Below are positions 1,331-43,412 of a stretch of 64,000 nucleotides of DNA, one piece after another. Source of the DNA: Nemertoderma westbladi (taxonomy: Eukaryota > Animalia > Xenacoelomorpha). Under the pieces are notes generated by a model. It saw only the letters and a program-made list of their open reading frames with translations. It searched no databases and was not told where the DNA came from. The stretch spans positions 1 to 64,000 of the forward strand of contig JAUCBJ010007342.1 of NCBI GenBank assembly GCA_032718475.1. Direction: 5' to 3'. A program made the position numbers and the translations under genes. Position 1 is the stretch's first letter. Every line of letters starts with the position of its first letter.

Positions 1331-1359
1331 CCACTCGTTCCACTCAATCCACTAAGTAG

Positions 1360-7260: not shown

Positions 7261-7271
7261 CCGATAAATTG

Positions 7272-8441: not shown

Positions 8442-8545
8442 TAAGGTAGCCCGGCACGGTTAATTATATAGTATAATTTTTGTTTTCCAACTTTAAGGCC
8501 CACGCAAATTCGAAATGTCAAGCTACTACAACTCACTGCAAAGCC

Positions 8546-10437: not shown

Positions 10438-10557
10438 AAAACCACTATCTATATATTTATATTAGGCCTACATATTTTGTTACATGGAGCTTGGATTTAT
10501 TACTGTTTACTTTGAATTGGAACTAGGCAGTTTAATTTGTAACTGGGTGCTCATATT

Positions 10558-15700: not shown

Positions 15701-16335
15701 CCTTTAATGTTGATGGAAACTTGACAACCATTGATAATAATCAACTAAGGAAGGTCGATGACTTCCAGTACCTTGGATCATGGATAGAGAGTAGCAAAAA
15801 GGACATAGAAGTTAGGAAAGCAAAGGCTTGGGTAGCTCTATCAAAAATGGATACCATCTGGAAATCAGATCTCTCCAGGCACCTGAAGACTAAGTTCTTT
15901 CGAGCCACAGTGGAAAGTGTATTTTTATATGGGGGTGAGACCGGGACACTGACTAAATCACTTGAACAACGAATTGATGGTTGCTACACAAGACTACTAA
16001 GGGCAGCCCTAAACATCAGCTGGAGACAACACATGACAAACGCCGAGCTTTATGGTACAATACCACCTGTATCAACCACCCTCCGTGAACGCAGATTAAG
16101 ATTCAGTGGGCACTGCTGGCGAAGTAAAGACGAGGTCATACCAGATCTACTTTTCTGGCAACCAACTCATGGAAAGCATAGTCGTGGACGACCGGCCATA
16201 ACATATATAGATCAACTTGAAAGGGATACTGAACTTGGGAGAAACGAAATTGCGACAACTATGGAGAATCGGGAAGCCTGGAAGGATCTCATTTCCACTG
16301 TCCGAGTTCGCTCGACCTAGTAGTAGTAGTAGTAG
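12791..16335 (+). mobile_element. Full-length RTE-clade LINE with about 490-bp 5' UTR and (TAG)n tail
   Basis: Single APE-RT ORF whose stop codon is the first unit of a TAGTAGTAG tail. Imperfect ATATAAATA-type flanks; the 5' boundary is approximate. Confidence 0.9.
13279..16320 (+). CDS. RTE retrotransposon apurinic-like endonuclease plus reverse transcriptase, intact, 1013 aa
   Basis: IATMNART, CIQEHR, GGVGILL, GDLNA, LDYIL, SDH (APE). NYRGICL, FVDFKKAFDS, GVLQGDTLAP, FADD, YLGS, RLRFSGHCWR, GRP (RT and RTE C-terminus). Confidence 0.96.
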   Translation: MSMRTLQEKYRLGRRPGQQGPRPPVVHQAGVDKLATGTEDREERRTNLLKCKKTLKIATMNARTLKAHTKQGDMVALAMEYNIDIICIQEHRICHEDTAMKYNDIGNGWTLVTSSAVRNSANASIGGVGILLSPFALKTLNNIESINSRVMIATFDGNPKATVICCYSPTNASEPEQAVKFYEELTGLIKDIPKHNVKVIAGDLNAQIGPEDIKGYTYNTSSNRNGYLLLDLMEECELIPTNNTFEKSKGKLWTFQYPNGTKAQLDYILINKKWRNSMINCEAYSSFNLIGSDHRIVTAEIRLSLRASKPRTSKQIKYDWEKLRTDNAVKDAYTVEVQNRFEALQSMDEDQSTNSIYQNIITAHKESAKRHIPQKPKRKQYVPWQNSEVTCKREDLKIAYKVKTEQPTTENINKVEKAKDDLKLAYNISQEKYIQDKTEAITTAHIQQQSRLTWQTVNEVSGRKSCAKGRLKADSPEERVGKWKNHFSNLLGQPPNIEVSPTRKIYDKTLPIETGDFTPAELQRSIKSMSNNKASGLDEIPAEVWKTGVLNRPLLNVCNRMLKGEKPPPIWTKGQLKPLPKKGDLGIPTNYRGICLLVVAAKIYNKMILYRIRPHIEKLLRKSQNGFRPSRSTIAQILALRRLIEGIKSKNLPAVMTFVDFKKAFDSIHRGKMLEILRAYGIPEVIVAGIGLLYCDTEAQVLSPDGETEFFSILAGVLQGDTLAPLLFVIVLDYAMRTATKGEDLGFTLQERRSSRYPATTVTDTDFADDIALLSNTLADAQLLLNKVERAAKEVGLHINSTKTEFMTFNVDGNLTTIDNNQLRKVDDFQYLGSWIESSKKDIEVRKAKAWVALSKMDTIWKSDLSRHLKTKFFRATVESVFLYGGETGTLTKSLEQRIDGCYTRLLRAALNISWRQHMTNAELYGTIPPVSTTLRERRLRFSGHCWRSKDEVIPDLLFWQPTHGKHSRGRPAITYIDQLERDTELGRNEIATTMENREAWKDLISTVRVRST

Positions 16336-22502: not shown

Positions 22503-23480
22503 CTAAATACCGTCCTTGTACCTGTGGTAAAGGTTGGGATTCAAAGTCCTGCGGGTCATTTCGTAGGCGTAAAAAAGCGCTGCGTTCGCAGGAAAACTGC
22601 GCACAACTGTCGGCGCCAAACCGCTGTAGAGTTTAGGAATACCTCCACTCCTGTAAATATCCTTAGCAGTGCTAATAATCCCGGAGGAAACCCCAGTCTG
22701 AACCTGCAGACGCGACTTAACCACGTCCATGGGGAACACCGAAGTCCAGAACGAAACGCCGGCGATCACACCGCACAGCATGAGTCGGAAGGGTCCGATA
22801 GTCTCCTTAGATTCGCCTTCTTTAGCGAGGAGATTGCGACTGAGTTCGTAGCCGCCGAAGAAGAAAAAATAGCCGGGGACTTCGCGGACCACGGTGCTCG
22901 CGAAACCTCGGTAGAACCCCGCCAAACCGTCCTGTCTGTAAACCGAGGCGACCAGTTGTAAGGGGCCTTCGATACGGGTAGATATTCCCGAGTGTTTCGC
23001 GGCTTCTCGCATCGCCTGTAGCCGGCATTTAATCAACTCTGTAGGGCAAAGCACAGTCGAAGCGAATAGCGCCGCTCCGCTGCCCGCCAACGCGTTATGG
23101 AATGCGTTCAACCGCTCCGGCCTGTCGATACCGCAAGCGTAGGAAACGGTTTTCTGGCACAAACCGTAGCTCATAAAGAGCACCGAATTTTCGGCGATGT
23201 TAGCGGCGAGGGCTGGCACCGACCCAGCGTATAGACCGCGAATTCCCTCGAATTTAAATGTGTTTAAGAAACAGTTTGTAGCTCCGCGGTACTGCTCCGG
23301 GAAGGTCTGGAGTTTCACTTTCACAGTGTCCAGCGGTTGTCCGGCGGCCACGCACGCTGTCCCACCCATGGCCCCGGCGATAAAGTCCACGAATGTGTCC
23401 CACGCGTGGCTCGATGTGCTGTGGACATGTTTCTGTTGTAGGTGTTCCACCTGGTGTTGGATCAATGAAGGTTCCCCCAT
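22503..23480 (-). CDS. SLC25A15: Mitochondrial carrier, ornithine transporter ORNT1-like, single coding exon, 325 aa
   Basis: Three Px[DE]xx[KR] carrier motifs (PLDTVK, PTELIK, PMDVVK). ORNT-typical GGTACV..GQPLDTVKVKLQTFP, ANIAENSVLF, REVPGYFFFFGGYE and RSFPANAALF. Confidence 0.9.
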   Translation of the reverse strand: MGEPSLIQHQVEHLQQKHVHSTSSHAWDTFVDFIAGAMGGTACVAAGQPLDTVKVKLQTFPEQYRGATNCFLNTFKFEGIRGLYAGSVPALAANIAENSVLFMSYGLCQKTVSYACGIDRPERLNAFHNALAGSGAALFASTVLCPTELIKCRLQAMREAAKHSGISTRIEGPLQLVASVYRQDGLAGFYRGFASTVVREVPGYFFFFGGYELSRNLLAKEGESKETIGPFRLMLCGVIAGVSFWTSVFPMDVVKSRLQVQTGVSSGIISTAKDIYRSGGIPKLYSGLAPTVVRSFPANAALFYAYEMTRRTLNPNLYHRYKDGI

Positions 23481-24354
23481 GGTAGCATCGATGACTGGAC
23501 TGGATAAATTAGGCCTACAGAATTAAATATTTGTAAATTTTTAACGAACCATAGGCAGATAGGCCAGGGGTGTAGGCCTACACCAAGGACTACTAGGCCC
23601 TATACTATATTACCTATACTATATACCTCTACTATATTACCGTACAGGACTGGAACACCCCTTCATCCGACTTCGCTAGCGAAGTCCATTGGTTTGGTAT
23701 TGCTTTACAGCTTTAGGCCCTATCACCTATAAACAGATAAAGCTATACTGCTGTACTGTTATAGACATTAATGTTATCAAAGGATTTTCATGAAATTTAG
23801 TACACTCAATCGTAATTATTAATAACATAGGCCTAATATATCAGTATATTTTGGTGTCAAGAAATAAAGGACGAACGCAGCGAGGCTTGTAACAAAGGGG
23901 ACGAGTGTTGTGTACTGTGTACTAACTATTCAATATAGTCTAGCTAGAGCGACCGTGTTTAGTACATTGTGCGATATAAAAACGATGTGAAAAGTATCCC
24001 TATTGGTCTGTTGGTAGGGGAATGTTGTGACACAGATGATAATGTATTCAACTAGCGGTATCAGGCAGTCGCAGTATGCCATTCCTGTAGTATAGTAGTC
24101 CTTGGCCAACATTAATAAGGGCCTGGCTGCCTGGTGGTGGTACGGTACCTGGACAAGTCCCTAAAAAAGCACCCTGCTCCATAGCGCGGGAATTTCAAAT
24201 GATTGAAAGACATGTAATTTATACTGGAAAGGGTGGCAGATCAGATCTGCCACCTATATTTTGGCGGTAAATTCAAATCTGTTTTAACATTGAATACATG
24301 AATAGAGTAAGACCAAGGACTACTATAGGCCTACTACAGGACTGGCATACTGCC

Positions 24355-26559
24355 TGATAAACAACCGCGACCTCTATACTAACAGCAGAACTGTTGAACA
24401 GACCAATACCCGTTAATATCCTTCTGCCAACCTAATAAGTTCTCGCCTATCCAATAAGACACAAAGACTGCTCTACTGTTAAGTAAAGGGGATCAGGAGC
24501 GTGCTATTACTAAATTGTAAGGGTTGCTAAATACAAAACCGCTACTTACCGTTGGATGGCGCTAATCTGCCGTCCGCTAATATATTTTACTAAATTTACA
24601 CAACTCCTGCAAAATCGCTTGTTCCTTTCTCTACCGATCGCTCGATAGAGAGCTAACTGTTCGAATCTATGAGCCACGCGGGAATAACCAAAACAATAAA
24701 CCCGAGTCGGCTCCCTAAGCTTACTTAAGACGAGTGCGAGAGGCCTTGCACTCAGAGTATTCTTACGCCTAATTCTATCACTTATTAAAGCACGCTATTA
24801 CCTACGTCTTTCCTAATCGCGAATACTGGAGGTTCCCTAACGTAATGTGTGAATGCGAGAATATTTAAAATAATCAAAAATGGTACAGTAACTGTTTCTA
24901 CGTGGATAGTACCACTCCGAGTCTAAAACTGCCCGCGGCTGGCTTTAGGCCAGCAAAACTACTAGCGTATCGTGCGTACCGAATAGTGCGTTCTAGCTGA
25001 TTGCCCGCTAATGCAAATAACCGCTCAGCGTGAATAGTTTACAGTACACTAATTATTACCTTAGCTACTCTCCGCTATGCTGCGTACTAATTCTTAATTT
25101 TTACTAATTAATTACAGTCACAAATATTTAACAGCGTACTAATTACTAAGAGTTCCAGAATACGTAATTCTAATTTATCACGCAACAGGTTTCGCTAGTA
25201 ATAGCCTAAATTGCCGTATTACTTTGACCTAATCAATAACTAATTATTGTAACTAAGAAATAGAAATCAATCAAAGGGAAAAGAGCGCCTATCTAAGCAT
25301 TCGTAATCATAGGCACACTTCAATAACACACCAATCAGCGTTAGAAATCACAGTTTACAATTGTGCAATTCACTACTCGTACTCCACACTCAACGTTGTA
25401 ATACGCGCAGGCCTCTCCCGGATACATCTAGGATTCCTAACTAACCCAATTCCTGCCCCCCTAATACTAAATAGAGACAAAACCTGGATCATCAGCCCCC
25501 TAGATACTGTACCAGCGATTGGTCTGCGTGCCGCAGTGCAAGATACCCGCCCGCAACGGTGACCCTGGCCAGCGTTGCCCGCTTTGAATCCTCCGCTCTC
25601 TCCTAGTCGCTCAACCCCCCGATGCGCCCACCGCCCACTGGCACCTTAGCCCTCCATGATGCTAATAGCTACCGTAGCGGCGCATGCAAATCACAAAGTC
25701 TGACAGTCTCAGAAATCCCTTAGGATTATTGCGCAGAAAGGAATCACATAGAACCATTAATCAAAGGGTAGAAATCATAGTTCAATTGTAATTAGCAGCA
25801 ATCGAAGGAATTATTGAGAAACACAAGCAAAGTAATCGCACTAGCAAATCATTCCAAGAAATTAATCAAAATTAGCAAATTGCAGAAAATACGATATCCT
25901 AATACAAAATTAGAGACAGCTCAGCAAGTAAATTGTAACAGGGGTGTGTCATGTGATAAGTAAGGGTATACAGTATTAACAGCATGAACATATAGGTTCT
26001 ACCGGCACACCGCCAATTTATAGGTGATCCGGATGGGGTGATGCAATAAGGTGACTCAATCGCTCTCCCATTGGCTCTCCAGTCCGTGCTAGCATTAAAC
26101 CAACCTGGAAGCAGTTAGTCCAATAAGGAGGCCGGATTGTAGTCCTATTGCCTGCCCAAACCTCGAATTATTACCTTATATGGTAATGGTTCACGTCCCT
26201 GGCCGCTGAATGGCCAGGACAGCGTCCCTATATGATAGCCCTACTGATGCTAATATCAGCAAGCACAAAATCCAGGGTCCGAATAAACTTGCTACCCTGG
26301 GACTATCTACATATATCCTAATACAAAATTACGTAGGTAGGGCTACATACTATACAAAATGGATGGATGCAAAATATATGGGCGTTTTAACTTCCTTACC
26401 TAAATGTCACCGCACTGTGCCTTATCTAAATAATTATACTGCACAACGGACTAATATTACGTACAGTATAACGGACTAATATTGCATACTGCATAACGGA
26501 CTAATACTGCATACAGTATAACGACTAATAATGTGGATACAGCGCCATATACCGTAACA
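24355..26559 (-). repeat. 3' LTR (2205 bp)
   Basis: Near-identical to 41005-43208; by eye about 7 substitutions and 2 small indels. Confidence 0.97.
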
Positions 26560-27046
26560 CCGCTCCAAGGGAAATCATATAATGTTTCCCTCCAATTGTA
26601 GAAGAGTATAAGGTGATGTATACAAAACAAAATAAATTTCTTCCAACCAATCTAAATAACATAATAATTCTACTATTTACAAATATTGCCATAGATATTG
26701 CATAATGAATTACATACAAATTAAATTTACAAAATATTATCTCTCTCATTGTTTAACGATTATTACATACAAATTAAATTTACAAAATATTGTTTCTCGT
26801 TCATTCTTACTACATAATGATTACTACATACAAATCAAATATAAAATTTTGCTAGGGCAAGTGAAAGGAGTAAGCCAAACCCGCAGGTTTGTCTCCCCAA
26901 TCACTTCCTTCGCCTCTTTCATAATATAAATTCAAATAACTCAACTAGTGTATACGAGTCTAGTCGAAGATTTTCAAATGCTACAATATACATCAGAGCG
27001 ACGATGATGTATATATCTAGAGTCTGTCGCCCTATGCCATAATGTA

Positions 27047-30000
27047 TTATCGACCCGCTCCTGGGTTCTTTGGGCTCGCTCCTCTCTTTCGCCCCCTCCC
27101 CAGATACACTAATCTACCTCCAGTCGACTCCGCTGACGGCGTTCGTGAGGCGTCACTCCCCGGAACTGGCGACGACGTTCCCTGAGCCCCGACAGATTCT
27201 CGGCTTGAATTTCTCCCTCGGCCTCGTCCCAATTGTCGCGCTCCCGTGGTCGCTTCCGCCAACTCTTCCTTCTGCAGTTGCACACGCGCTTTCTCCGACG
27301 CCCCCTGCGCCTTGCGCTGCAACCGTTGCGCTTCTATAATTGAGTGGTAGTGGTCGTCCTTGACTTGACGCTTGTCTTGGACCTCTCCTCCTGGTTCTTT
27401 CCGCGAGCCTTGAGCTCCAGCGGTTGTCGCTGTGGTCGCTGCGATCCTTTGTTCCTGTATCCTCTCAGCGGTCAATGAACCCACTGGCACATGAGTCAAC
27501 AAGAATTCGTTGCGGTATTGTATAGCCGCCATCCTCCAATCACCTCGCGCGCGTACCACTTTTCTAGTCTCCGTAAATACACCCTTCGTGATGCGATAGC
27601 AAATAGCAACGAAGTTCCATGTGTACTTATTGTCCATGTTCAATTGTCTGAAGTATTCTCGGACTACGATAACTCCAGTGTTCTGTGGAAGGTCTTGAGC
27701 AGTTAGGATGAGCTCCTGATATTGTGGTAGCGATTGTAGATATGGCTCGTACGCAACATGCGATGGGTCTACCGCTCAAAACCCATATCCCGCTTTAAAT
27801 GGTAACCAACGCATCTGCGCTTGAATATGGTAATCCGCCACACTCTCCCACTTGTCTAACATCTCCCGAAGTAGGTTAGCGCTATGGTTTTGAAAGGAAT
27901 CATCTCGCAGCTGACATCTCGCGCTACGATGTCCCTTTACCCCACAATATCCACATTGAGAAACGAAGACGGTGCACGTATGAAACGAATGGTCGGTCTC
28001 ATTACACCAACGACAGACCTTATGTGCCGCCTCTACTACCGCGTCGCACGACTTTAGATTGTGCCTTGTGCTGCCGCACAATTTGCACCTACGCGCTTGT
28101 GGAAACCAGGCCCTCTCGTATATGAGGTCTCCAATTGGTTTCGCACTTCCTTCCTTCCCAATGTCTAATACGATGTCGTCCTCTCCAGTCAACGGTTGTC
28201 GATCCGGAACAAAGTAAACATCCTCGCCCTTGTCCTCTATCTCCAATATTTCCTCCCGCGTTCGTTTCGGATATGTCTTCTCCACCGGAAGATCTACTCC
28301 GAACACCTCTACTAAAGTCTCCGGCCAGCCCTCCTTAACAGGTCTATCAGCCTCCGAGAGGAAGGGAGTACCAAACCCGCGGGTTTGATTCCCGAACCAC
28401 TTCTCCAAAGCTTCTGGCGTCGGATATTCCATCGACGGTCGGTCTCCCAAATCTCCGATGTTCTGTCGATATACTCCTTCGAATATCGCTAATCCTCTCC
28501 TCACCATCGACGTATTCTCTAACGACTGGTTGAAGAACGGGGTTAAGAAACGCTTCATCACGTCGGATTGGATTCCCCCTTTCGAGCGAACGTATTGATC
28601 TCCTCCGAATACCAATGGATGACGCTTCAAAACTCGCGCAACGATATCCGCTAATAAACAAGTCACCGTGTTCGACTCAAGCACCAAATAATATTGTAGC
28701 GACGCACGGGGTGGCGCGCAAATGTTCCAATACACTAACGCTTGCCGCTTGAAGTGGGATTTGAACTCCGCTCCCGGTGGCGTGTTGTATTCGCCATACG
28801 CCTCCTCATACTTCCTTTGCGTCTTTAACTTAAAGTCCCAATTATACAACAAGTGTGCTATAAAGCCCATACCAGTCTTGGCAGAGTTGGGATACTCCCT
28901 ATAAATTCCAATATCCTGTGCCCATAGCAACAATAGCTTGGTGTCGACAAACGGTCTCGGCAATCTATCTTCCAGATCAGTCATGGCGTTGAAGTCGCTC
29001 TCCAAATCGCTCTGGACTCCCGATCCCACCTTGACGTAATCTTGGTTGAGAATAGCCTCTCTAACTTTCTTTGGTAACATCCTGGCGTCGATACGCTCCG
29101 CTCCGTGCATACCTCCTCGCCTGCATACCTCCAAAATCTGCTCCCTAGGATCCTTCCCCTTCCGATATTGTGTCGTTATGATGGGCTCCGGTCTCTCTCG
29201 ATCCGCCCTCACACGCATAAACACATGAGTCACACCATCGGCCGCACGAATTTGAATACACTTGCTGGTCAAACATTCCTGATGGGACCCTCCTTCATTG
29301 TCGTAGAACATCACCCTCCAATCCTGCAGTGATTCCTCCGTCTTCCTCCACTGACGCTGAATCTCGTCTGATGGGGTCCACATGCGCTCGATAGCCTTGT
29401 GGTCATCATATCGGGTATAAGAACCCTTCCTCCTCAGCCACGTCTGGTCTACCTCCTGGAATGTAGCCACCACGACCCATACCTTGATGTACTTATCCAA
29501 CCATCCAAATAGCTTACTCTCCTTCCCCGGAGCTCCAATCTTATCCAACGTGTCATAATCTGTGATCTGCATTGGGACATCACGCAAGAACTTCGCGCAT
29601 AAAACTTCCCGTAGACAGTCAACGTTCCAATGGTCCGCCATTCTTACCATCGGCAAGAATCGTATCGCTTCTCGCGACTCCGGATGATCTACTAATATCG
29701 CAGGTTCGGTGCCGTCGGAATAATACACCGGTCCGGGTTGAGATACGACCTGTGGAACAAATCCGGTCACTCTCCTCGTCTCCTCTTGATGTCTATCCGC
29801 GGTCTTATTATACTCCGCTATCCTGTTCTCAAATAACTCTTTCGCCTTCGCCGCTCGCTCCTCCTGCCGCAACGCGTCTATGTCGTCCTGATGCTCAGGC
29901 GTGAGGCTTCTCACTCGGTGAGGTGAAGTAAACGTAGTCCAGGGACTCGAGAGCTCCAAACCCGCGGGTTTGGTACCCGAGTCCCGCGCCGCTTCGCGCC

Positions 30001-30745
30001 GCGCCTCTAGATCCTTGTAGGCTTGGTACAGCGAAATGGCCGCTGCCGTCTCTATCAAACTGGGTGTCGAACAGGGTTTAATCTCCGTATACGGATCTAA
30101 TGTCGTAACGGTCGGCGTAATGGGTCTCGGAGGTCGCTTTCCGCTGAAGTCGATACTGATCATCGGGTTGCTCATCGGGTAACCTCCCTCGTTGTATCTA
30201 AGGAATTGGTGAGCTGGACATCGCGTTAATATCGGTTCCGGATGTTGCTCGTCTAATCGGTCGGGAATCGCTACGTCCTGTTTATTCATGCATTCACCAC
30301 ACTTGTAGAACAGCTTGTACACGCTGAAGACTTTCGGCGTCTCCTGATCCTCACCTCGAGTCCTCCGGTACAGATGCATTCCGTCGAACTGATCTCGGAC
30401 TGCAGGTAGAGGCTCCTCGTGTCGTAAATACATATTCATATGGTATAGTCGTGCGATTTCCTCGTCCGGGTCTGCGCTAATGTCACACACGTCCAAAGCG
30501 AAGTCGTAGGGATACCGCGTGCGATACTCTTTCCGCAAAACTTCCATCCGGTCCCCCAACGCTCTCATTCTTTCTCTCCGTAATTCTTTATCATAACTTG
30601 GTTTGTACTTTCCATTTAGCTCCATCACGGACCGCCCATGGTAGTAAACGTTAGAGTCTTTACATCCTGGTCGCGCGAATGGTAGCTCCGCCTCCTCTCT
30701 GGCAGTAAATCCTCTGCGCGGTTGCGCTCTAATATCCCTCTCCAT
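27047..30745 (-). CDS. BEL accessory protein: N-terminal unknown/Cys-His domain, DEDDy 3'-5' exonuclease-like domain, three CCHC knuckles and basic RG-rich tail; 989 aa to an in-frame TGA at 27776-27778, about 1232 aa if read through
   Basis: VMFYDNE, CIQIR, LPKKVREAILNQDYVKVGSGVQSDL, FVDT, QYYLVLE. CKLCGSTRHNLKSC, CRWCNETDHSFHTC, CGYCGVKGHRSARC. The frame stays open past the TGA into ORF 27047-27643. Confidence 0.8.
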
Positions 30746-31503
30746 TATGTTACGCGTATATACATATATATATATCCCAATAAGTGCCGTTACGTAACCA
30801 ATTACACTGTGGGTAAATCAGTTAGATGTCGCCGAAAGACAGACCTCCCGAACCCCCCCCCGCCTTCCAGCAGTTCAGGTTCGACTCTCTAGATCCCGTC
30901 TCTTCCTAACTAACTATCCTCTAACCTATTCCCATGCATAGCGCAAAAACTTTGGAGATAAACTGGCCGTGACCAACTCACTTTTTGATGCCCAAACTAC
31001 TCCCATTACTCGTACTAAACTACAGTAGTTAGAAAGGACCATAGCCACAATACTCGACTATACCAAACCCACAGGTTTGATAATCGAACATCACACATCC
31101 TGCAAACTACTGAGTGGGGTCCATGTACGCCTCTGGTGCTACTAACCTTTAGCACCCTAGTTGCACCGTTGGCACCAATCTGTGGAAGTTGCTAAACTCA
31201 ATTTACACTCCTACGTAATATAGCCGTCACCATGGTTTCTAAATGCTATTTTCCAGGCTTCACGACTTTTCAAATTACTGTTATCTATAGACGAATTCTA
31301 AAACGCGTCTATACACAGCGTCTGGAATTGTCTTGGGTTCACTTTTAATTTTTAAAATTTTCTAATTTTCCAAAAATTTTGAAATAAAATTTTGTTTTGA
31401 TACCCACTAGACAAAACTCAACGCAAATCACCACAACCCCGCTCCTATGCATTTCCTTGTATTTGCATACGAGGAATGCATACGAAGTGAGTTGCGTCTA
31501 ACA

Positions 31504-33393
31504 CTATCTCTGTTTTGAGGCAGGAGACAAATTATAATCTCCCGTCTCGATACGTGTCTCCTCTAATAACACGATATCTTGGACTGGTCGGTCCAAGGTG
31601 TGTAAACCATTAGTTTTACACTTCTTTGGGTGCGGACACTTGCACCTAATTTTCACAGTGACTGTGCGCACTATGTTTTGCACGTCTGGGTGTGTGTGCA
31701 AGATCACTCCTGTCTCCCAATACTTTCTCTTGACAATGGGTTCGGTTATCAACACGTAATCTCCTCTTTGGAGACTCCGAACCGTTTTGTACCACTTTGT
31801 TCTGGTAGATATGGTGGGAAGATAGTATTCCCGCCAATATTCCCAGAATGTGTACGCCACAAATTGTGTCACCTTCCAGCTCTTACGACTATATAGGTCG
31901 GCACTAACGGGTTCTGATGCCGGCACAAGAAATGCTGGACTCTGCATTAGCAAATGATTCGGCGTTAATGCAACACCGTCTGGCAACATAGCTATCGGCC
32001 TCGAGTTTAGGGTATGCTCGATTTCAATGAAAGCTGTGACCAGTTCGTCGTCGGTAAGTTGTTTGTTCACAGGCAATGTTTTGGCAATGGCCTGTTTTAC
32101 AGAGCGAACTAAACGCTCCCAACTTCCTCCTCTCCAAGGACTTTCTGGAGTATTAAATCTCCATTCTACTCTTTGCGGCAAAAGTGCTGCAGAAATTTCC
32201 TTATTCTGTGCTGCTTTATGAGCCGCGTTCAACTCGCTATTCCCTCCGACAAAGTTTGTACCCTTATCGGAGTAGAACGCCTTTACTAGTCCTCTCCTGG
32301 CCATAAATCTCTTCAAGGCCAGGAGCAGAGATTTGGTCGACATGTCTGCCACACGCTCGATATGTATGGCTCTACTCGCCATACATGTCAGTAGCAGGCC
32401 CCATCTCTTGTGGGTCAGCCGTCCACTCTTTGCTTCAATCGGACCAAAACAATCCACCCCTGTGTTCGTAAAGGGTGGGTCATATGCCTGCACTCTCGCT
32501 TCCGGGAGTTCAGCCATCTCCTGTTCCAATACTCTGGCGTTCACTCTCTTGCAAACCAGACAGGCGTCGTACATAGTGCCGACTGCCCTGCTTGGCTGCA
32601 ATAGAATGAATCGCTGTCTCGCTGCCGACAAACAGTGTAACTTTCCAGCGTGATGCAACCTCTTATGTATATCCCATAGAATCGCTCTTTGCAATTCTAT
32701 TGGGTGACTAGGGATTATCACTGGGAATCGAAACTGTGAGTTTATGTCGACAGTCTGGATTCTCGATCTATGACAAATTAAACCCTTATGGATTAATGGA
32801 CTCCATTTTCTAAGGGGTTTGTAGAGAACTGGTCGCTGAGCCGATAATAGATGGAATTCTTTGGGGAAGGCACACATTTGATAATGCTTCAAATGCTTTA
32901 ATTCCGCTTGATCAATCTCATCCTCTGTCAGAGGTTGTTTCAATTTCCGAATTCGCTCACTATTGGTGCTCAATGGTTCTCTCAAATGTTTCGAATGTTT
33001 TATACAAAGGTACGAAATGTATCGGCTTAACCACGCAGTTCTTTTACAAATTGTCAGCCAAGAGGCAGACGAATTTAGTAATTTGTCATAAACACTGCAT
33101 GACTCTAATGCCAGCGACGGTTGTCCGCTAACTAATGGAAGTTTCGAATCCAAACCCGCAGGTTTGGAAACCAAAGGATCCATTGTGTCGGTCATTTTCT
33201 GTCCGTCACTTACCAATTGTGACTCCGGTTTAGTCTGTAAGGGTGGTTTGATGTCATAACTTACCCTTCCGGACCTAGTAGTCAAGCTCCAATGACTCTT
33301 CAGGCCGCTCCAATGACTCTTCAGGCCGCTCCAATGACTTAAGTTTGGCTTTAGACTTCGACTTAGAGACTTTCTCCACCTTGACTTCTGCAT
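31504..33393 (-). CDS. BEL pol C-terminus (integrase), in the +1 frame relative to upstream pol
   Basis: HKRLHH...CLVC, PPFTNTGVDCFGP, RAIHIE, SDKGTNF, PWRGGSWERLVRSVK, LTPNHLL, YLPTISTRTKW. Confidence 0.93.
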   Translation of the reverse strand: MQKSRWRKSLSRSLKPNLSHWSGLKSHWSGLKSHWSLTTRSGRVSYDIKPPLQTKPESQLVSDGQKMTDTMDPLVSKPAGLDSKLPLVSGQPSLALESCSVYDKLLNSSASWLTICKRTAWLSRYISYLCIKHSKHLREPLSTNSERIRKLKQPLTEDEIDQAELKHLKHYQMCAFPKEFHLLSAQRPVLYKPLRKWSPLIHKGLICHRSRIQTVDINSQFRFPVIIPSHPIELQRAILWDIHKRLHHAGKLHCLSAARQRFILLQPSRAVGTMYDACLVCKRVNARVLEQEMAELPEARVQAYDPPFTNTGVDCFGPIEAKSGRLTHKRWGLLLTCMASRAIHIERVADMSTKSLLLALKRFMARRGLVKAFYSDKGTNFVGGNSELNAAHKAAQNKEISAALLPQRVEWRFNTPESPWRGGSWERLVRSVKQAIAKTLPVNKQLTDDELVTAFIEIEHTLNSRPIAMLPDGVALTPNHLLMQSPAFLVPASEPVSADLYSRKSWKVTQFVAYTFWEYWREYYLPTISTRTKWYKTVRSLQRGDYVLITEPIVKRKYWETGVILHTHPDVQNIVRTVTVKIRCKCPHPKKCKTNGLHTLDRPVQDIVLLEETRIETGDYNLSPASKQR

Positions 33394-36300
33394 CTTCAGG
33401 CATCGGATTGGTCACTATCTTTAGTCGCTCTGGCCAATGTTCCTGTGTCCTCGTTAGAAAATCAGGTCCATGCAACCAAAACTCCTGGGACTCTTCCTGA
33501 CAGAATTCCGCCGGCATTGCACCTCTCGAAGTTATGTCGGCCGGGTTCAACACTCCCGGACAATGTCTCCATTGTTCCTTCGTCGAAAAATCAACGATCT
33601 GAGCGCGTCTATTGGCCACAAATGTCTTTAGTGCAATATTGTCGGCCGCAATGTATACTAACACTAAGGATGCGTCCGTCCAATAGAATAAGGTCAATGT
33701 CGTGTCTAACTCCTCAGTTATTTGCTTACTTACCTCGACTGAAACTACAGCCGCCTGTAACTCTGCACGAGGGACAGTCATGTATTTGACCGGCATAGTC
33801 TTTGATCTAGAAGTCACAAAGGCCGTCTCAAACTTGTCCTGACTTACCTCTCGGCGAAGGTAGGCTACCATACCAAAGCCGGTGTCACTTGCGTCACTAA
33901 ATAGGTGGAGCTCTAAATCAGCTGGGAATACCAGCTGATTCGGGAAGTAGGAGCGGGGTACATCTATGTTTTTCAATAGATGTAACTCGGCTTCCCACTC
34001 TCTCCACTGCTTTGCATGTATAGGAGATATTGGTTCGTCCCACTCTACGTCGGACAACCAAATTTTCCTCATGCACGCTCGTGCCTGTAATATTACCGGA
34101 CTGATAAAGTTCATCGGGTCAAATAGTCTACTTAATGTCGATAAGCAAATCCTCTTTGTCAAAACTTTGTCTGGGCTACTGGGCTCAAATCTAACTCTTA
34201 CCTGGAACTTATCTGAGTTCGGGTTCCAAGCGAGTCCCAGTACTCGCGCCATGGGGATTGGTTCTACCCCCAATTCTATGTCTCCGCTCCCGCGATCTTT
34301 CACCGGGAACGATTCTAATAGGGCCTCCGAATTCGTAGTGAACTTGGTCAGAGGAAAACCCCCTGTAGCCAAGCACTCTTGCAGGCCGTGAGCCACTTCT
34401 ATGGCTTGTTCCGCCGTGTCCTTGGACACCAATCCGTCGTCCATATAGAAGTTTCTCAAGATGGACTCGATTACTTCTACTGGGTACTTACCAATTTGGG
34501 CTGTTGCCGTTTTCTTTAGAACAAACAGCGTGCCATTCGGACTATCGCGGGCGCCAAATATCCTAACGTACATTTGGTATGTAACCACTGGGCCGGATAA
34601 GTCTTCATTCTCGTACCAGAGAAAGCGAAGGCTATCCTGGTCTGCCTTACAGGCTCTTACCTGGTGGAACATCGCCTCGATGTCACAAGTAAATGCGAAT
34701 CGCCGCTGTCTAAAACGCAACAGTATTCCTATCAAATAGTTATTCAGGTTGGGACCATCCATCAACTCTGAATTCAGGGACATACCTCTATAGACTGCTG
34801 CGCAGTCGTTGACTACTCGGACTTTGTCTGGCTTGTCAGGGTGAGTCACATAGTGGTGCGGAAGGTAATAAGTCTGGTCTGTCACTAAGTCAGGGTCCTC
34901 TACCTTCCCAGCAAATCCCTTGGCGAAATAGTTGTTGATCTGGGCGCAATACTTCTCCCTAATGTCCGGATTCTTCAACAACCGAGCCCTTACTCCGTTT
35001 AATCTTTTCAAGGCTAAGTTGTAGTTGTTCTCCAACTTAGGTGGTTGTCGACGCCACAACATTCCAACTTCAAAATGTCCAGTCGGTAGCAGACGTATGG
35101 TATCTTCCATCATCTCCAGCGACCGTTTCTCATCAGTAGACATGGCTAGGTCATATCCACCGGGTTCCATTGCGTCCCTATCCAGCCATTCGACGGTTCT
35201 GGCTCCTGTCTCGAGGTCCTGGCGTATCAATTCTTTCTGCAATTCCTCCTCACTGTATTGGAAAATGTCGAGGTCTCGATATTTAGCCACTTGACCCTCC
35301 ACTATGTCTGTATAAGTCAAAACGTTAGTCAGATAAGTAGCGTGGGCCGCTGAACCAGACCCACGGGTCTGATAACAGTCCTCGGGTTCACTATCTGTCC
35401 GGTTGTTATGAAGTGGTTCCGACAACCTAACATTATCGGGAATCAACTCCTCGTCCGACTCGCTAAAGTCACTATAGTGGTCAATACAGGTTCTCCTAAA
35501 CTCGTCTATGTCTGGTGGTTCTACTAACGGTGGTTGAATTATAGGCTGTAATTCATCGTATCTGTCTATTGGCTTGTCGCCACCTGTAAACTCATAAGAC
35601 ATGGGTACTCGTGTATACCAACCTAGTATAGTCCTATGGGCATGTGGTCCATTGACATGCGGCTCAGCTGGTCTCGTTTCCCATATTTGGTGTGCGATCA
35701 GCTGTTCTGCACCAATCAACATAGAAACATTCCTATAACCTACCTGGTGTCTGGGTATCCTGAGCTTGTCAAAATACTCCTGTGCTATGGGACTCATCGG
35801 CGGCACCTTACCTAACTGCCTGCCGAATCCCTTCATAGCTAGACACTTAAATCCGTCCAATGGCAAAGCTTTCCGTTCTTGTCGAGTGTGTTGGTCTCTC
35901 GGAAGTAGGGAATCTAGTTCTACCGAAATTCTGTGTCCCTTGAGGTCACCTACCCCGTGCATAGACTTCAACTCTATTTGGATCTCCTCGGCGTCCTGGA
36001 AGCTAGAAACGGCTCTCGCCACTTCCTCGTCGATATACGATAATGTGGACGCAGTGTCCAACATCACATATATTCGCTTCGATCCCTTATCGCCAGTAAG
36101 TTTCACCGGAATCACGCTAAATATTTCCGACGTGGCCGATGATAAATACGTCCGCGCGCTGGTCGATGAACTATCCGCGGTGAAACCTTGGCAGGTCACT
36201 TCTCTCGCGCTCGACTCGCCATCCTCGTCCGACGAACCTGGTTGATAACCATCGTCCTGGATGCCGGTATACGTATTCCTCCTTATCGATACGGGTTCTT

Positions 36301-37701
36301 TGCTCCCCTTCCTGTGAGGATTTCGCTGTAAGTAACGGTCCGTTGGGGTGTGGAAATCCGCATGTAGCAACTTGTGATGTAGTCTGCCGCACTCCATGCA
36401 TCCGTCCTTGCTGTTCGGGCACTGCCGCCGTACATGGCCTGGCGCAAGACATGCCCAACAGGTGTCCAACGTCCGCACTTGAACTCTTCTCTGTTCCGAA
36501 TTTAATTCCTTGAACCGTCTGCAACTATCTAACTTATGGTCGTCAGATCTTACCTCCTTTAGTAAACAGTATTGGCAACCTACAAATCCATCCGGCAACT
36601 CCTGTTGCTTTAACCTAGGTCTATCTAACCGCTCACCTGACCATACTCGCGAGTCTGATCTAAAGGCTGGGGTACTCGAATTATATCTGTCTACTGAGTT
36701 AAATGTCACAGTGGTCCTGTCGTCGTCAAAACTTACCATAGACTTACCGGTAACAGGTTTAGACTCCCTCATATTCTCTTCTGAGAAGTTTGATTTCATC
36801 TCTGCTACTGCGTCTGTGGCTATCATGTCATGAATATGCTGAAGTGTCAACACCTTACCTTGACCTTCCAGCTTATTCTCTAATTTGCGCCATTTCTGTC
36901 GGTAACGCATGTTTAGACGTCTTATTACGCTCTTTAAGACTTCGGCGTGATCACCATGCTGAGGTAGATTCACCGTCCTCAAGATGTCCAATGCGTTCGA
37001 AATAGCGTTCGCTAAGTTCAACAGCTCTAACGGAGTTGTAATCCTTCCGCCCTTACCCAAGTCTTCTACTATCGACTGCGCCATCTTGGTTTTATTCCCG
37101 TAGATGTCACTAAGCGTCTTCATCGCTAACTCGAATGCCCGTTCATTGCCGACGAAGTTATCAGCAATGGCTCTAGGTTCTCGATGGAGCATCTGAAGCA
37201 AATAGTTGAACTTCTCGTTGGGAGTAAAGGTGCTGTTGGTCAGCTGCTCGTCGACATAGGTTTTAAAGGTCCTCCAGTGCTTATGGTTGCCCATAAACTT
37301 CTGGGGTTGTTGCGTCGGCAGTCCTTGCCTAGCAGCAAACTTACCTATGTCCCTAAGGGTTGCGTCGTTCCGGGTTAACAAATGGTTTAGTTCCGCAGGG
37401 TTATTAAGTCTGGTCCTTTCCCGGTGGTTCCAACTTACCTGCTCCGCGTCCGTCCTTCTTTCCTTATAGTTTCGGGACTTCTGACGTCTCATTTCTTCCT
37501 CTTCATCGCTTGACTCAGTGTCAGTCCTTAGCGCTCGCGATGGTTTGCGCACCGAGGCCCTGACCCAAGCTTCCTCAATAAATCTTTCCGCCGAATTTTC
37601 GAAATTGTGATTATGGATATTCGGGACAGGCGTCCTTACCTGAGGTCTATGTGGTATAGTCTCCTCCGATATGCGTACTCGTTGACTAGGTTGGACTTTT
37701 A
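33275..37701 (-). CDS. BEL gag core (DUF1759-like plus three zinc knuckles), aspartic protease, reverse transcriptase and RNase H
   Basis: KFMGNHKHWRTF, EKFNYL, CQYC..H..C, CWACLAPGHVRRQC, CMECGRLHHKLLH, MLDTAS, YYLPHH, DIEAMFHQV, FYMDD, LFSDAS, PRAELQAA, WTDA, WRHCPGVLNPAD. The frame is open from about 37701. Confidence 0.95.
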
Positions 37702-39887
37702 TCTAACTCAGGCCTGCTGGGATTAGAATTACTTCTTACCTGGGCTGCTTCCTTTAACCGTAGGTTGCTAAGCATGTCCGTTATAGGTTGGATGTGCGGC
37801 GATATAGCTTGCGCTAAACTAGCACTTAACTCATCCCTCGTAATAAATTCCTGGCTAGGGTTCTGTTGTATAGTCGGCTCTATCTGAGTAATTCGCTGTC
37901 TCTCATATGATCCCTCTTCCGGTTTAACCCGGAAGTTCTCCGTCGAACTGGGTCGGCGCTCCGTCCGCGTATTCCAAACCCGCGGGTTCGGTTCGCCAAG
38001 TACTCGTCCCGTCGGAGTTTCTTCTCTAAATTCTCCGTTGTCGCGTTCGGTATACAGTGGTGCGGTGTTCCGATGACGTAGATCCTGGGCGATGGGTGAA
38101 GCACTAATACCAACTGGCGTGCGATATGTAGAGAACGGTTTAACGATCCGTGTACTCGTAATAGCTGGACCGGGTATAGGAATTCTGGTCGTCGTCGACT
38201 CGCGTATAGTCGGAGTTCTCGCTTCCTGTTCGGCCTTCTGCAGTGCGAACAGCTCTCGCAACTCTGTCCCTACACTCGCCCCACATTCTTCGATCATTCG
38301 CATCCCCTTCTCGGCGATTTCATTCGCCTTCCTAGTCCATTCTTCGCTCTCTAAACTTAATCTCGCACTTTCCAACTGCGCCAGTTTACGCTCTTCTTCT
38401 TCCCTCGCTCGTCTCGCTGCGCTCTCTTCTTCCACTCGCGCCTTTTCTTCATACAATGCGCGTCTTCTTTTTTCGATCTCGAGTTCGCGTTCCTTGCGTC
38501 CGCGTTCGAGTTGAAGCTCGCGCTCCTTCTGTTCACGATCGAGTTTCTTGCGCTCGCGTTCGGCTTGGAGTTCGCGTTTCTTCGCTTCCTGCTCGCGTTC
38601 GAGTTGGAGTTCGCGTTTCTTCGCTTCCCGCTCGCATTCAAGTTGGAGTTCGCATTCTCTCTGTTCGCGTTCGAGTTCCTCGCGCTCGCGCTCGGCTTGG
38701 AGTTCGCGTTCCCTTTGCTCGCGTTCCGCTCGCTCGCGCTTACTTATCTCTTCCAACTCTCGTAACTCTGCATCCAACTTACGTGTGCGCTCCCGTTCCC
38801 GCTCGGCTTCCTTCCGTGCTTCCTGTGCACGCAAAACTTCCGCCTGCTGTTCGTCTAGTCGGCGTCTTCTCTCCTCCGCCGAGTTGTGAGAAACAAGGGA
38901 TCTAGCACATATTACCTTACCTCGCGCGTGACTAACCTGGGAATCGCCGCTGTCTCTAGATGCATCGTCGGGTGGAGTCAACGTCCTCTGTTGGATGTTC
39001 TCCGTCGTCGGTAGCACCTGACCTGGTACCACCACTCCATTCTGCATCAGCCAGCTAGTAACTTCCCTCTGATAACGGCGCCCTTCTTTATCCTGCGTCT
39101 CTTCACGCTCCACTAAGTCTCTCAACTCTGCGTCACTCACCTGAGTCGCCTGCGTTTGTGATGCCCATAGCAGCCAGTTCTCCGTCCTAACTCGTCGAAA
39201 TCGCTCCGATAACTCGCGGTGCTCCAACAAGGCTGCTAAAACCCTGTCGTAAATCCTCGTTGCTACGTCGCTCGACTGAGACTCTACTGCCTTCTTCGCT
39301 AGGACTGCAAGCTCCTCCGTCTGCTTGAATAACGCTGAGTTATATCCTCTTCTAATTTCTACTAACTCTACCCTCCCGATGTTCGCTGAGTCGGCTAACA
39401 TCTTCCTTACCTTGTCCGTCGTCCGAGTTATATGTCCGGCGTGCGCGCAAAGTTTCTTCTTTATCGCGATATCAAGTTCTCTCTCGCTTACCTGACTCAC
39501 ACTCGGTGGACTTGAAGGATTATTTCGGGAACTACGGGTACTCCTAACAGCCGTCGGGACCACGGCACTTACCATACCCACAGGTCTGGAAACCGGGCTC
39601 CGGGCTCTCGCTTCTGCTACACTACTCTCCCTATCACTCACCTCTGTCCGGGCTGCTGTACAGTCCTTCCTATCAGTAGCGGTAGGGGATCCTAATACTA
39701 TTACTTGAGGTTGCTCTTCTTCCTCACTAGTCACTGTCTCGTCCTCCTGTTCACTTACGTCAGCGTCGCTCGCTGCGTCGTCATAGTCGGGATTGTCGTC
39801 AACAGTAATGTTTACGCTATCGTCAGTCGGCGGTCCAGCCGCCGTCTCATAGCTGTCCTCTAGTGCCTCCTTGTCTGAGACACTCAT
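37686..39887 (-). CDS. Long N-terminal part of gag: acidic leader, helical region and E/R-rich coiled-coil repeats, 733 aa
   Basis: ATG lies 1.1 kb downstream of the 5' LTR. Overlaps the gag-pol frame by about 15 nt at GATAAAAGTC, where removing one base would fuse the two. Confidence 0.8.
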   Translation of the reverse strand: MSVSDKEALEDSYETAAGPPTDDSVNITVDDNPDYDDAASDADVSEQEDETVTSEEEEQPQVIVLGSPTATDRKDCTAARTEVSDRESSVAEARARSPVSRPVGMVSAVVPTAVRSTRSSRNNPSSPPSVSQVSERELDIAIKKKLCAHAGHITRTTDKVRKMLADSANIGRVELVEIRRGYNSALFKQTEELAVLAKKAVESQSSDVATRIYDRVLAALLEHRELSERFRRVRTENWLLWASQTQATQVSDAELRDLVEREETQDKEGRRYQREVTSWLMQNGVVVPGQVLPTTENIQQRTLTPPDDASRDSGDSQVSHARGKVICARSLVSHNSAEERRRRLDEQQAEVLRAQEARKEAERERERTRKLDAELRELEEISKRERAEREQRERELQAEREREELEREQRECELQLECEREAKKRELQLEREQEAKKRELQAERERKKLDREQKERELQLERGRKERELEIEKRRRALYEEKARVEEESAARRAREEEERKLAQLESARLSLESEEWTRKANEIAEKGMRMIEECGASVGTELRELFALQKAEQEARTPTIRESTTTRIPIPGPAITSTRIVKPFSTYRTPVGISASPIAQDLRHRNTAPLYTERDNGEFREETPTGRVLGEPNPRVWNTRTERRPSSTENFRVKPEEGSYERQRITQIEPTIQQNPSQEFITRDELSASLAQAISPHIQPITDMLSNLRLKEAAQVRSNSNPSRPELDKSPT

Positions 39888-41004
39888 AGTCTAAATAATG
39901 TTTGCCTTCCGGCAAAAATATCTCGCAAAAGTTCGAGATATAATTATAATTTAACCGAAAATACGGTCAAATTATTTGTCAAATAATCAGTTGGTCCAAA
40001 ATGTCAAAATAAATTCGCAATGCAATATTGTGAATTTAATGGGGTATATAGTTATAGCAAATACTAACACAATATTTAAACAAAATATTATTATTTAGCT
40101 ATTATATAGCATTAAATACCGGTATAGCACAAAATAACTTTGAATCTAATACAAAATATTCAAAATAAACTTGCCGCCCGAATATTTCTAATTTTATATA
40201 TATAGCTCTAATCAACGTAATTTTAATTTCAAATATTATATGTATCCACTAGCGCGTGGCTACATCTTCGGGTTGCGACTCTCTCTAACTCTCTCTCTAA
40301 CTTGAGCGATTCAAAACCATGGCCGGCTAAACCTAAATATCCTAACTAATAAATTGAGTTCAGCTTCGCAGTTAAACAACCGATAATTTTTTACTGCTTC
40401 CACAAACACACTGGTGCCAACAGAACAACTAACCTTGTTTGCTGTGAGATTCCACGTCCGCGTCCAAAGATTCAGGCCCTTCGCTGATTGCAAACCGAAC
40501 CCGCAGACCCACACGAACCCCAAACTCAGAAGTTCCGTCTTGCCATGTATCTCCAGATGGTATAAAATAACTAAGCGGTTACCTAACATACCGGTACAAA
40601 ACTCTAGAATTTTACAAATAATTTTGACCGAAAACTGAATTCTCGCAAACCTAGCTAAAATTTTCAAAAACTTACTAATTACTGTTTGCCCTAAGGCCTA
40701 AGGAACTGCTGTATTCGCAATTAGCAAAACGCACTACCGTACATTCACTGTATGCAGTACAGTAAGTAAAACAGTACACCAACCTAACAGCCTAATGTAC
40801 TACTGTACTATTGTACGCAGCCAGTGAATACAGTAATCTAAACTAACAGCCTAAAGGAATATACTCAATGTCTTACTGTACGCTAGCCTATAGCCTACAG
40901 CAGACGATCACGTGCTCCAATTTATTGCCTAATACTATGATACTACTATCAGCCTAAGAATACTCTATTGACCGCTGCAAGCAACAGCCAATAGCGCGTA
41001 TTAC

Positions 41005-43208
41005 TGATAAACAACCGCGACCTCTATACTAACAGCAGAACTGTTGAACAGACCAATACCCGTTAATATCCTTCTGCCAACCTAATAAGTTCTCGTCTAA
41101 CCAATAAGACACAAAGACTGCTCTACTGTTAAGTAAAGGGGATCAGGAGCGTGCTATTACTAAATTGTAAGGGTTGCTAAATACAAAACCGCTACTTACC
41201 GTTGGATGGCGCTAATCTGCCGTCCGCTAATATATTTTACTAAATTTACACAACTCCTGCAAAATCACTTGTTCCTTTCTCTACCGATCGCTCGATAGAG
41301 AGCTAACTGTTCGAATCTATGAGCCACGCGGGAATAACCAAAACAATAAACCCGAGTCGGCTCCCTAAGCTTACTTAAGACGAGTGCGAGAGGCCTTGCA
41401 CTCAGAGTATTCTTACGCCTAATTCTATCACTTATTAAAGCACGCTATTACCTACGTCTTTCCTAATCGCGAATACTGGAGGTTCCCTAACGTAATGTGT
41501 GAATGCGAGAATATTTAAAATAATCAAAAATGGTACAGTAACTGTTTCTACGTGGATAGTACCACTCCGAGTCTAAAACTGCCCGCGGCTGGCTTTAGGC
41601 CAGCAAAACTACTAGCGTATCGTGCGTACCGAATAGTGCGTTCTAGCTGATTGCCCGCTAATGCAAATAACCGCTCAGCGTGAATAGTTTACAGTACACT
41701 AATTATTACCTTAGCTACTCTCCGCTATGCTGCGTACTAATTCTTAATTTTTACTAATTAATTACAGTCACAAATATTTAACAGCGTACTAATTACTAAG
41801 AGTTCCAGAATACGTAATTCTAATTTATCACGCAACAGGTTTCGCTAGTAATAGCCTAAATTGCCGTATTACTTTGACCTAATCAATAACTAATTATTGT
41901 AACTAAGAAATAGAAATCAATCAAAGGGAAAAGAGCGCCTATCTAAGCATTCGTAATCATAGGCACACTTCAATAACACACCAATCAGCGTTAGAAATCA
42001 CAGTTTACAATTGTGCAATTCACTACTCGTACTCCACACTCAACGTTGTAATACGCGCAGGCCTCTCCCAGATACATCTAGGATTCCTAACTAACCCAAT
42101 TCCTGCCCCCCTAATACTAAATAGAGACAAAACCTGGATCATCAGCCCCCTAGATACTGTACCAGCGATTGGTCTGCGTGCCGCAGTGCAAGATACCCGC
42201 CCGCAACGGTGACCCTGGCCAGCGTTGCCCGCTTTGAATCCTCCGCTCTCTCCTAGTCGCTCAACCCCCCGATGCGCCCACCGCCCACTGGCACCTTAGC
42301 CCTCCATGATGCTAATAGCTACCGTAGCGGCGCATGCAAATCACAAAGTCTGACAGTCTCAGAAATCCCTTAGGATTATTGCGCAGAAAGGAATCACATA
42401 GAACCATTAATCAAAGGGTAGAAATCATAGTTCAATTGTAATTAGCAGCAATCGAAGGAATTATTGAGAAACACAAGCAAAGTAATCGCACTAGCAAATC
42501 ATTCCAAGAAATTAATCAAAATTAGCAAATTGCAGAAAATACGATATCCTAATACAAAATTAGAGACAGCTCAGCAAGTAAATTGTAACAGGGGTGTGTC
42601 ATGTGATAAGTAAGGGTATACAGTATTAACAGCATGAACATATAGGTTCTACCGGCACACCGCCAATTTATAGGTGATCCGGATGGGGTGATGCAATAAG
42701 GTGACTCAATCGCTCTCCCATTGGCTCTCCAGTCCGTGCTAGCATTAAACCAACCTGGAAGCAGTTAGTCCAATAAGGAGGCCGGATTGTAGTCCTATCG
42801 CTTGCCCAAACCTCGAATTATTACCTTATATGGTAATGGTTCACGTCCCTGGCCGCTGAATGGCCAGGACAGCGTCCCTATGATAGCCCTACTGATGCTA
42901 ATATCAGCAAGCACAAAAATCCAGGGTCCGAATAAACTTGCTACCCTGGGACTATCTACATATATCTTAATACAAAATTACGTAGGTAGGGCTACATACT
43001 ATACAAAATGGATGGATGCAAAATATATGGGCGTTTTAACTTCCTTACCTAAATGTCACCGCACTGTGCCTTATCTAAATAATTATACTGCACAACGGAC
43101 TAATATTACGTACAGTATAACGGACTAATATTGCATACTGCATAACGGACTAATACTGCATACAGTATAACGACTAATAATGTGGATACAGCGCCATATA
43201 CCGTAACA
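41005..43208 (-). repeat. 5' LTR (2204 bp)
   Basis: Partner of 24355-26559, followed by TSD CTGCC. Confidence 0.97.
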
Positions 43209-43412
43209 CTGCCTGACACCTGATCCGACTTCGCTAGCGAAGTCCATTCATTTCATACTGCACTATTGATGTAAGCTGTACTGCTACCGTAGAATGATTT
43301 ATTAACCAGTATACTTAACCTACAAACAGACAGATAGACAGTTTACTGGTTTAGTATAGTCCTACCGCCTGACCGCTGCTGGTAGGCCTATATCATATCG
43401 CTGGATGACGCA

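Follow-up and report, generated by a model that had tools for sequence, protein, structure and literature searches.

The DNA analysed here, called the window below, is a stretch of 64,000 nucleotides from Nemertoderma westbladi (contig JAUCBJ010007342.1, positions 1 to 64,000), and its minus strand carries at 24355-43208 an 18,854-bp retrotransposon of the BEL/Pao group, bounded by long terminal repeats (LTRs). The subject of this study is the third open reading frame (ORF3) of this element, found on the minus strand at 30745-27779, between the integrase ORF and the 3' LTR; it starts about 760 bp past the integrase stop and codes for 989 aa, or for 1232 positions when a TGA is read as X. Its product is predicted, from profile comparisons and a structure model, to carry a divergent DEDDy-type 3'-5' exoribonuclease domain of the DnaQ/RNase H-like fold, and three zinc knuckles follow. 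A preliminary description of the locus had reported an ORF of this length in the env position, and both its extent and its place, next to an integrase with DUF5641, were reproduced.

In the ORF3 protein an N-terminal region of about 470 aa (30745-29336), to which no fold was assigned, is followed by the DEDDy-like exonuclease domain (28646-29317; D482, E484, D580, Y686 and E690, with an insertion of about 26 aa after strand 3), by three CX2CX4HX4C zinc knuckles (27914-28087, residues 887-944), located where they had been described, and by a conserved tail module (27707-27913), whose homology crosses the stop and reaches residue 1013. The remainder of the frame (27047-27706) ends in a low-complexity basic tail. 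Neither a signal peptide nor a transmembrane anchor was evident when hydropathy was calculated over 19-residue windows; the highest value was 1.34 and the N-terminus is charged. Judged by these properties of the sequence ORF3 is not env-like, in agreement with the earlier claim. Searching Pfam with ORF3 alone gave no family at E<=1, nor did the segment after the stop give any, and the sequence search of the PDB with ORF3 alone gave no relevant match; weak matches to rotavirus VP4, DsbA and L proteins were taken as chance. No match was obtained in the Atlas for residues 1-420.

Beyond the ORF3 stop (TGA, 27776-27778) there are 242 further in-frame codons. Contigs covering this codon were present in three DNA runs (10, 4 and 1, respectively) and every one of them differs from the window stop; coverage in the fourth DNA run was zero. 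Since the covering contigs of the three runs are without the stop, this codon most likely reflects damage to the window copy or a fault of its assembly; programmed read-through was rejected, and the length of ORF3 in the family is about 1,230 codons. The knuckle-tail profile of the relatives described below aligned with residues 882-1013 across X (E 1.2e-21, single comparison).

Comparison of the window with itself gave a single long direct repeat, 99.5% identical, which is the LTR pair. The 5' LTR (41005-43208, 2204 nt) and the 3' LTR (24355-26559, 2205 nt), both with TG...CA ends and on the minus strand, are told apart by 7 substitutions and 2 indels; since this divergence is only about 0.3%, the insertion is young. 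A 5-bp target-site duplication, GGCAG, flanks them at 43209-43213 and 24350-24354. On the same strand an N-terminal gag extension (37686-39890, 734 aa, with charged repeats) precedes gag-pol (33275-37702; DUF1759, CCHC, the protease and reverse transcriptase (RT) region, and Peptidase_A17 (Pao)) and the integrase ORF (31504-33411; H2C2 zinc domain and DUF5641), with Pfam E-values of 2e-9 for DUF1759, 3e-39 for Peptidase_A17 and 2e-17 for DUF5641. The gag-pol of the window copy is interrupted by two frame breaks, one at the end of the gag extension and one before the integrase, and at the first of these the length differs in other copies in all four runs compared. We take DUF1759, Peptidase_A17, the integrase zinc domain and DUF5641 to be markers of BEL/Pao, and on these Pfam domains and on the integrase being last in pol the element is classed as BEL/Pao, an assignment made in the preliminary description that the TG...CA LTRs and the target duplication also uphold.

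According to the Belpaoviridae profile of the international virus-taxonomy committee (ICTV; PMC8742986), genomes of this family are 4.2-10 kb and their LTRs 0.2-1.2 kb long, an 18-nt tRNA primer-binding site is typical, and the third genes named are env-like only. The order LTR-gag-pol-ORF3-LTR and the Pao marker domains are common to the present element and to those ICTV elements that have an env-like ORF3. In contrast, ORF3 is not env-like here, the element (18.9 kb) is almost twice the ICTV size range, its LTRs are 2.2 kb long, and a tRNA primer site, judged by the TGG start, is not evident.

At the primer-binding position (40994-41004, minus strand), directly after the 5' LTR, the TGG start is absent and the 11 nt form an exact complement of LTR positions 42048-42058; the same complement recurs in the 3' LTR at 25398-25408. 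A self-complement of at least 11 nt was reached by 6 of the 14365 internal positions of the element. Tf1 is known for a self-priming mechanism, and this arrangement resembles, in sequence, the Tf1-type signature; the literature search, judged by titles, returned nothing on a self-priming-like signature. Both the missing TGG-type primer site and the exact complement in its own LTR would fit an ORF3 enzyme that acts on the RNA of the element itself during replication, e.g. by completing the self-primer or a transcript at its 3' end. The nucleocapsid-like knuckles could bring the ORF3 protein into particles, and 3'-end processing of element RNAs was proposed by Rodriguez et al. (PMC5408684, in the portion of the article available). 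Against such a role stand the relatives with dead active sites, which persist. The primer end of Tf1 is made by RNase H, which we also counted against it, and on balance we consider processing of the element's own RNA unlikely.

The exonuclease-like domain

All the exonuclease motifs named in the preliminary description were found in their places: ExoI VMFYDNE (29314-29294), CIQI (29260-29249), the ExoII region LPKKVREAIL (29077-29048) and VKVGSGVQSDL (29035-29003), FVDT (28951-28940) and ExoIII QYYLVLE (28696-28676). In a six-sequence alignment of the domain (A4), D482-x-E484, D580 and Y686-x3-E690 fall on the ExoI, II and III positions. D580 lies in the best-conserved block, which scored 46.5 as compared with 6.5 for the next one. 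D482 and E484 align with DVE or DTE of the relatives; they form the top block within residues 440-560, with a low score, and are placed on a predicted strand in the structure model. In ExoIII the canonical Y-x3-D is replaced by Y686-x3-E690, so that the active-site set reads D-E-D-E instead of D-E-D-D. The same Y-x3-E occurs in the relative P0001, and a deep contig of another run has no differences across 28578-28751, which covers the ExoIII codons; thus Glu at the last acidic position is a trait of the family. By its motifs the ORF3 domain is classed as a DEDE variant, outside the canonical DEDDy membership.

A profile built from four relatives, with ORF3 excluded, scored ORF3 at E 1.2e-20 over residues 555-656 (single comparison). 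When the A4 profile was compared with the PDB, the best match was the exonuclease domain of EXD2 (E 1.4e-6), followed by Egalitarian (E 0.35), with ExoI, II and III aligned; three sequences were matched at E<=10. The segment LP..l..lL.d..i.KVG.g...D is shared with EXD2-type domains. With the structure model based on A4, all 36 rows listed by Foldseek were of DEDDy type (EXD2, Egalitarian, RNase D, NrnC, Nibbler, Pol I and Rrp6), and among these listed matches five had E<=0.001, the TM-scores being about 0.3-0.4. In the VIA fold comparison the best match was Egalitarian (Z 8.3, rmsd 4.2, 157 aligned), with DnaQ-like folds down the list, and in the Atlas PF01612 clusters appeared at 0.91, ranked behind clusters without a name. 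The DEDDy-like fold put forward in the preliminary description is retained as a prediction, closest to EXD2, Egalitarian and RNase D, with a structure model of low confidence. The group of EXD2, WRN-exo, Nibbler and Egalitarian (PF01612) supplied the best profile match (EXD2) and the best Foldseek matches; ORF3 differs from it in having 11-16% identity, no Pfam match, the insertion after strand 3, the Yx3E motif and a location in a transposon.

Some points weigh against our reading of ORF3, of which this domain is a part, and those that concern the fold are as follows. The register of ExoI is not certain and is the weakest part of the DEDDy assignment, since MAFFT placed D482 on the DxE of the relatives in two of its four modes and gave another register in the other two. 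The A4-based model is weak (pLDDT 53, pTM 0.52), and a first model, with a pLDDT of 37 and ExoI misaligned, was discarded and not used for the fold search. The Foldseek TM-scores are low, and a VIA Z near 8 is, by the tool's own note, unremarkable when taken by itself. The lines of evidence from sequence and fold agree, yet they are not fully independent. Finally, E stands at the fourth acidic position. In favour of the domain, RICE1 is an active WRN-like RNase with Glu at this last position, yet as a precedent it is atypical, being according to the text available otherwise unusual and apparently metal-independent (PMC5451212).

Copies, selection and relatives

Part of the stretch was present in six of the seven sequencing runs listed, which come from four studies, one of them possibly the source of the window. 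The exonuclease stretch (1,051 bp) was matched by 1187 and 540 contig pieces in two DNA runs, with identities from >99% down to <90%. These hundreds of pieces at varied identity mean that many diverged copies carry the exonuclease, and the claim that ORF3 is family-wide rather than a single nested insertion was borne out. Internally deleted copies also occur, some of which lose much of ORF3. In a well-supported subfamily found in three DNA runs, about 109 codons (residues 49-158, window 30270-30600) are lost in frame.

The preliminary description had suggested that selection be compared among copies. Variant sites numbered 69, of which 40 were listed, and each was classified singly against the window codons. 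Thirty-three of the 40 listed sites were synonymous. Among sites polymorphic within the two deep runs the figure was 31/36, as against about 31% expected, which corresponds to a rough omega of 0.07; many of the sites with a low share trace to a single diverged subfamily, and these are not independent. All 20 of the listed sites at 5-97% share were synonymous. Even in the worst case, with all 29 unlisted sites changing the protein, 33/69 would be synonymous, still above expectation (p 0.007). None of the 40 listed variants hit a catalytic codon. In contrast, of the changes private to the window copy 3 are synonymous and 5 are not (Fisher p 0.009 in comparison with the polymorphic sites, listed rows only); these changes look neutral, as expected for decay after insertion. 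ORF3 is thus under strong purifying selection in the other copies.

In a search of 1.84 billion representative proteins five matches (P0001-P0005) were obtained, with E-values from 4.7e-7 to 4e-4. Together with the score of ORF3 against the relatives-only profile, these matches indicate that the resemblance exceeds chance. All five contain an exonuclease-like region, three knuckles and the conserved tail, at a sequence identity of about 20-30%; PF01612 of Pfam was touched by P0001 only (E 0.04-0.2). A scan of a metagenome collection with alignment A3 confirmed at least three of 596 candidate stretches. Two of these are short contigs on which pol was not seen, L001 being that of P0004 and L002 that of P0005. 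The third, L003, has at its start the tail of an integrase (DUF5641, E 2.4e-11) that matches the integrase of the window element (E 2e-6). Directly after it comes a frame of 1017 codons, whose knuckle-tail module was recognised at E 2e-9 with A3 and at E 0.002 with ORF3; its exonuclease-like region is degenerate and weakly supported (hidden Markov model E 0.03-0.06; hhalign probability 5%, E 0.007). L003 is one independent case of an ORF3-like gene linked to BEL/Pao, on a contig that does not include the LTRs.

The active sites of six relatives (P0001-P0005 and L003) were compared by eye. The full catalytic set is kept in P0001, P0003 and P0004, in the last of which (L001) ExoI lies in an upstream frame, and P0002 keeps the acidic residues and has lost the Tyr. 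In P0005 and L003 the catalytic residues of ExoI and II are lost and the knuckles are retained or doubled; P0005, with a degenerate nuclease domain, has the knuckle-tail module in two tandem copies (L002, 79-2025). ORF3 could be an adaptor or decoy with little or no catalytic activity, comparable with Egalitarian and EXD1, that binds, transports or shields the RNA of the element. The replacement of the last D by E, the missing ExoI and II acidic residues of P0005 and of L003, which stands beside a BEL integrase tail, and the place of Egalitarian at the top of both fold searches (Foldseek, VIA) agree with this. The four acidic positions and the Tyr are, however, kept in ORF3, with no listed variant at those codons, and P0001, P0003 and L001 likewise retain the full set, so we regard such an inactive protein as rather unlikely.

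Other searches remained blank. Word-indexed homologue searches gave 0/1524 and 0/7996 candidates and a third returned the query only, and nothing was found in the locus scans with ORF3 in metagenomes, with P0001 and A3 in viral contigs, or with A3 in prokaryote genomes. The failure of the word-indexed searches and of the metagenome locus scan to find close relatives outside the source organism would suit a host gene captured once, or a nested insertion without a role for the element. This explanation is already largely refuted, and we consider it very improbable, by the hundreds of contig pieces from many copies that cover ORF3, by the strong selection on it and by L003 of another organism, in which a related ORF comes after the tail of a BEL integrase. 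A related N-terminal part in a second BEL fragment of the window also speaks against it. This second BEL/Pao fragment is broken (1356-6141, plus strand), with an integrase (H2C2 and DUF5641) 38% identical to that of the main element. Its downstream frame (5596-5893) resembles ORF3 residues 144-246 (z 7.4, 0/300 shuffles, in 15 comparisons made); remnants of the exonuclease or of the knuckles were looked for in the fragment and not found.

Precedents and possible roles

DEDDy ORF3s have been described in the Juno and Vesta LTR elements and in the Athena/Terminons of bdelloids, with 3'-end processing or silencing proposed as roles (Rodriguez, Kenefick and Arkhipova 2017, PMC5408684), and two reviews repeat these findings (PMC6338049, PMC5718144), all in the passages available. 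As far as that text goes, the Juno/Vesta ORF3 is, like the present one, not env and lacks a membrane segment; both have a DEDDy-type domain after the integrase and an acidic motif that departs from the canonical one, and the roles suggested are the same. By description the bdelloid motif is DEED instead of DEDE, and the host elements carry dUTPase and GPY/F-type integrases. Elements of this kind are Ty3/gypsy-like. Zinc knuckles are not mentioned in the available bdelloid text, where a Cys-His-Cys motif is noted, whereas the ORF here has three knuckles and, unlike the bdelloid ORF3 as presented there, is about 1,230 aa long with a long N-terminus of unassigned fold. The bdelloid ORF3s gave, in the same text, no clear departure from neutrality, in contrast with the strong selection found here.

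The second precedent is TbRND (PDB 7C42), the RNase D of Trypanosoma brucei. This DEDD enzyme binds single-stranded RNA through its CCHC fingers, and guide RNAs are depleted when it is overexpressed (PMC7797062, accessible part). It was the top PDB match of the full-length family profile (7c42, E 1.8e-5), via the knuckles only, and orthology is not implied. A DEDD exonuclease followed by C-terminal tandem CCHC is common to both, and TbRND reached Z 6.9 against the ORF3 domain model in VIA. It is, however, a cellular enzyme with canonical DEDD and four fingers after a 28-residue linker, while in ORF3 three knuckles lie about 190 residues away and are followed by the conserved tail.

The preliminary description had supposed that the architecture is new. 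This held in part: full-text literature searches, judged by their listings and by the papers cited here, found no report of a DEDDy ORF3 in BEL/Pao or fused to knuckles, Repbase, Dfam and GyDB being outside their scope. Extra ORFs were perhaps remarked on in the Cer elements of C. elegans, which could lower the novelty. A word count for 'exonuclease' gave 0 in the BEL/Pao survey PMC3118150, and also in PMC2774666 and PMC13524379. What did not hold is the novelty of the concept, since a DEDDy ORF3 of LTR elements was published in 2017 (PMC5408684) and DEDD with CCHC is present in TbRND (PMC7797062), as far as the available parts of both show; the BEL/Pao host and the knuckle fusion are the apparent additions.

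ORF3 is an accessory and not a core gene, being a separate ORF, lost in part from internally deleted copies, of low identity among relatives and without catalysis in two of the six. Selection maintains it in this multi-copy BEL/Pao family, and we tentatively propose, with the chances judged to be somewhat short of even, that it acts as a counter-silencing factor. The protein, made from its own ORF, could act in trans; its knuckles would hold single-stranded RNA and feed the 3' end to the active site, as in the trypanosome RNase D, and it would trim or destroy the small silencing RNAs, or U-tailed cleavage products, that target the element. Lineages without catalysis would retain the RNA-binding part as a decoy. 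This role was favoured because ORF3 is separate from Pol and not present in most BEL/Pao elements, because divergence is strong between lineages and constraint is found within one, and because some lineages lose catalysis and keep the RNA-binding module, like the DEDD pseudo-enzymes of the PIWI-interacting RNA (piRNA) pathway, for which the available text names EXD1 and Maelstrom (PMC5408684).

To the points on the fold given above, others have to be added here. The catalytic residues are lost in two of six relatives, and genomic context was seen for only two of the five protein relatives, both on short contigs that show no pol. DNA, too, is a substrate of DEDDy folds. Moreover, the bdelloid ORF3s have no clear link to copy number in the text available (PMC5408684). 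An ORF3 acting as a DNA exonuclease, which proofreads or trims cDNA ends and so aids an unusually long genome of 18.9 kb, would be in line with the fold, common to WRN, EXD2 and Pol I domains, and with an element almost twice the ICTV size range. But ORF3 is not fused to Pol, the CCHC knuckles and the likeness to TbRND indicate RNA, and synonymous sites vary freely among the copies, hence this function appears improbable.

A wider form of the counter-silencing proposal, which we hold to be doubtful, is that an old lineage of large BEL/Pao elements, present across species, carries a TbRND-like trimmer of small RNAs that suppresses silencing by piRNA or small interfering RNA, alternates between nuclease and decoy in an arms race with the host, and explains the high copy number. 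The role of exonuclease ORF3s has been open since 2017. The family would extend them to a second LTR superfamily and add an RNA-binding module with a solved cellular analogue; it also offers direct evidence of purifying selection on an exonuclease ORF3, and its natural active-looking and dead variants make the question accessible to a simple enzyme assay. To our knowledge, counter-defence proteins have rarely been shown for animal transposons.

Other elements in the window

An intronless mitochondrial carrier gene (22503-23522, minus strand; Mito_carr, E 1e-64) lies some 830 bp away from where the 3' LTR ends. Two non-LTR elements were also found. An open frame of 1045 aa at 13183-16320 (plus strand) codes for an endonuclease and an RT, and a LINE-like element at 54114-61788 (minus strand) has an endonuclease frame and an RT frame with one stop between them; ahead of these two lies a frame of 1545 aa, in which a 30-bp proline-rich repeat and a Ulp1/Peptidase_C48 domain (E 5.6e-8) were recognised. 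A long satellite array of 15/17-bp units occupies 43388-49191, with an inverted block at 43448-43728, and further tandem arrays of 20-, 30- and 36-bp units are located at 8500-10460, 59700-61200, 52500-53820 and 7240-7590.

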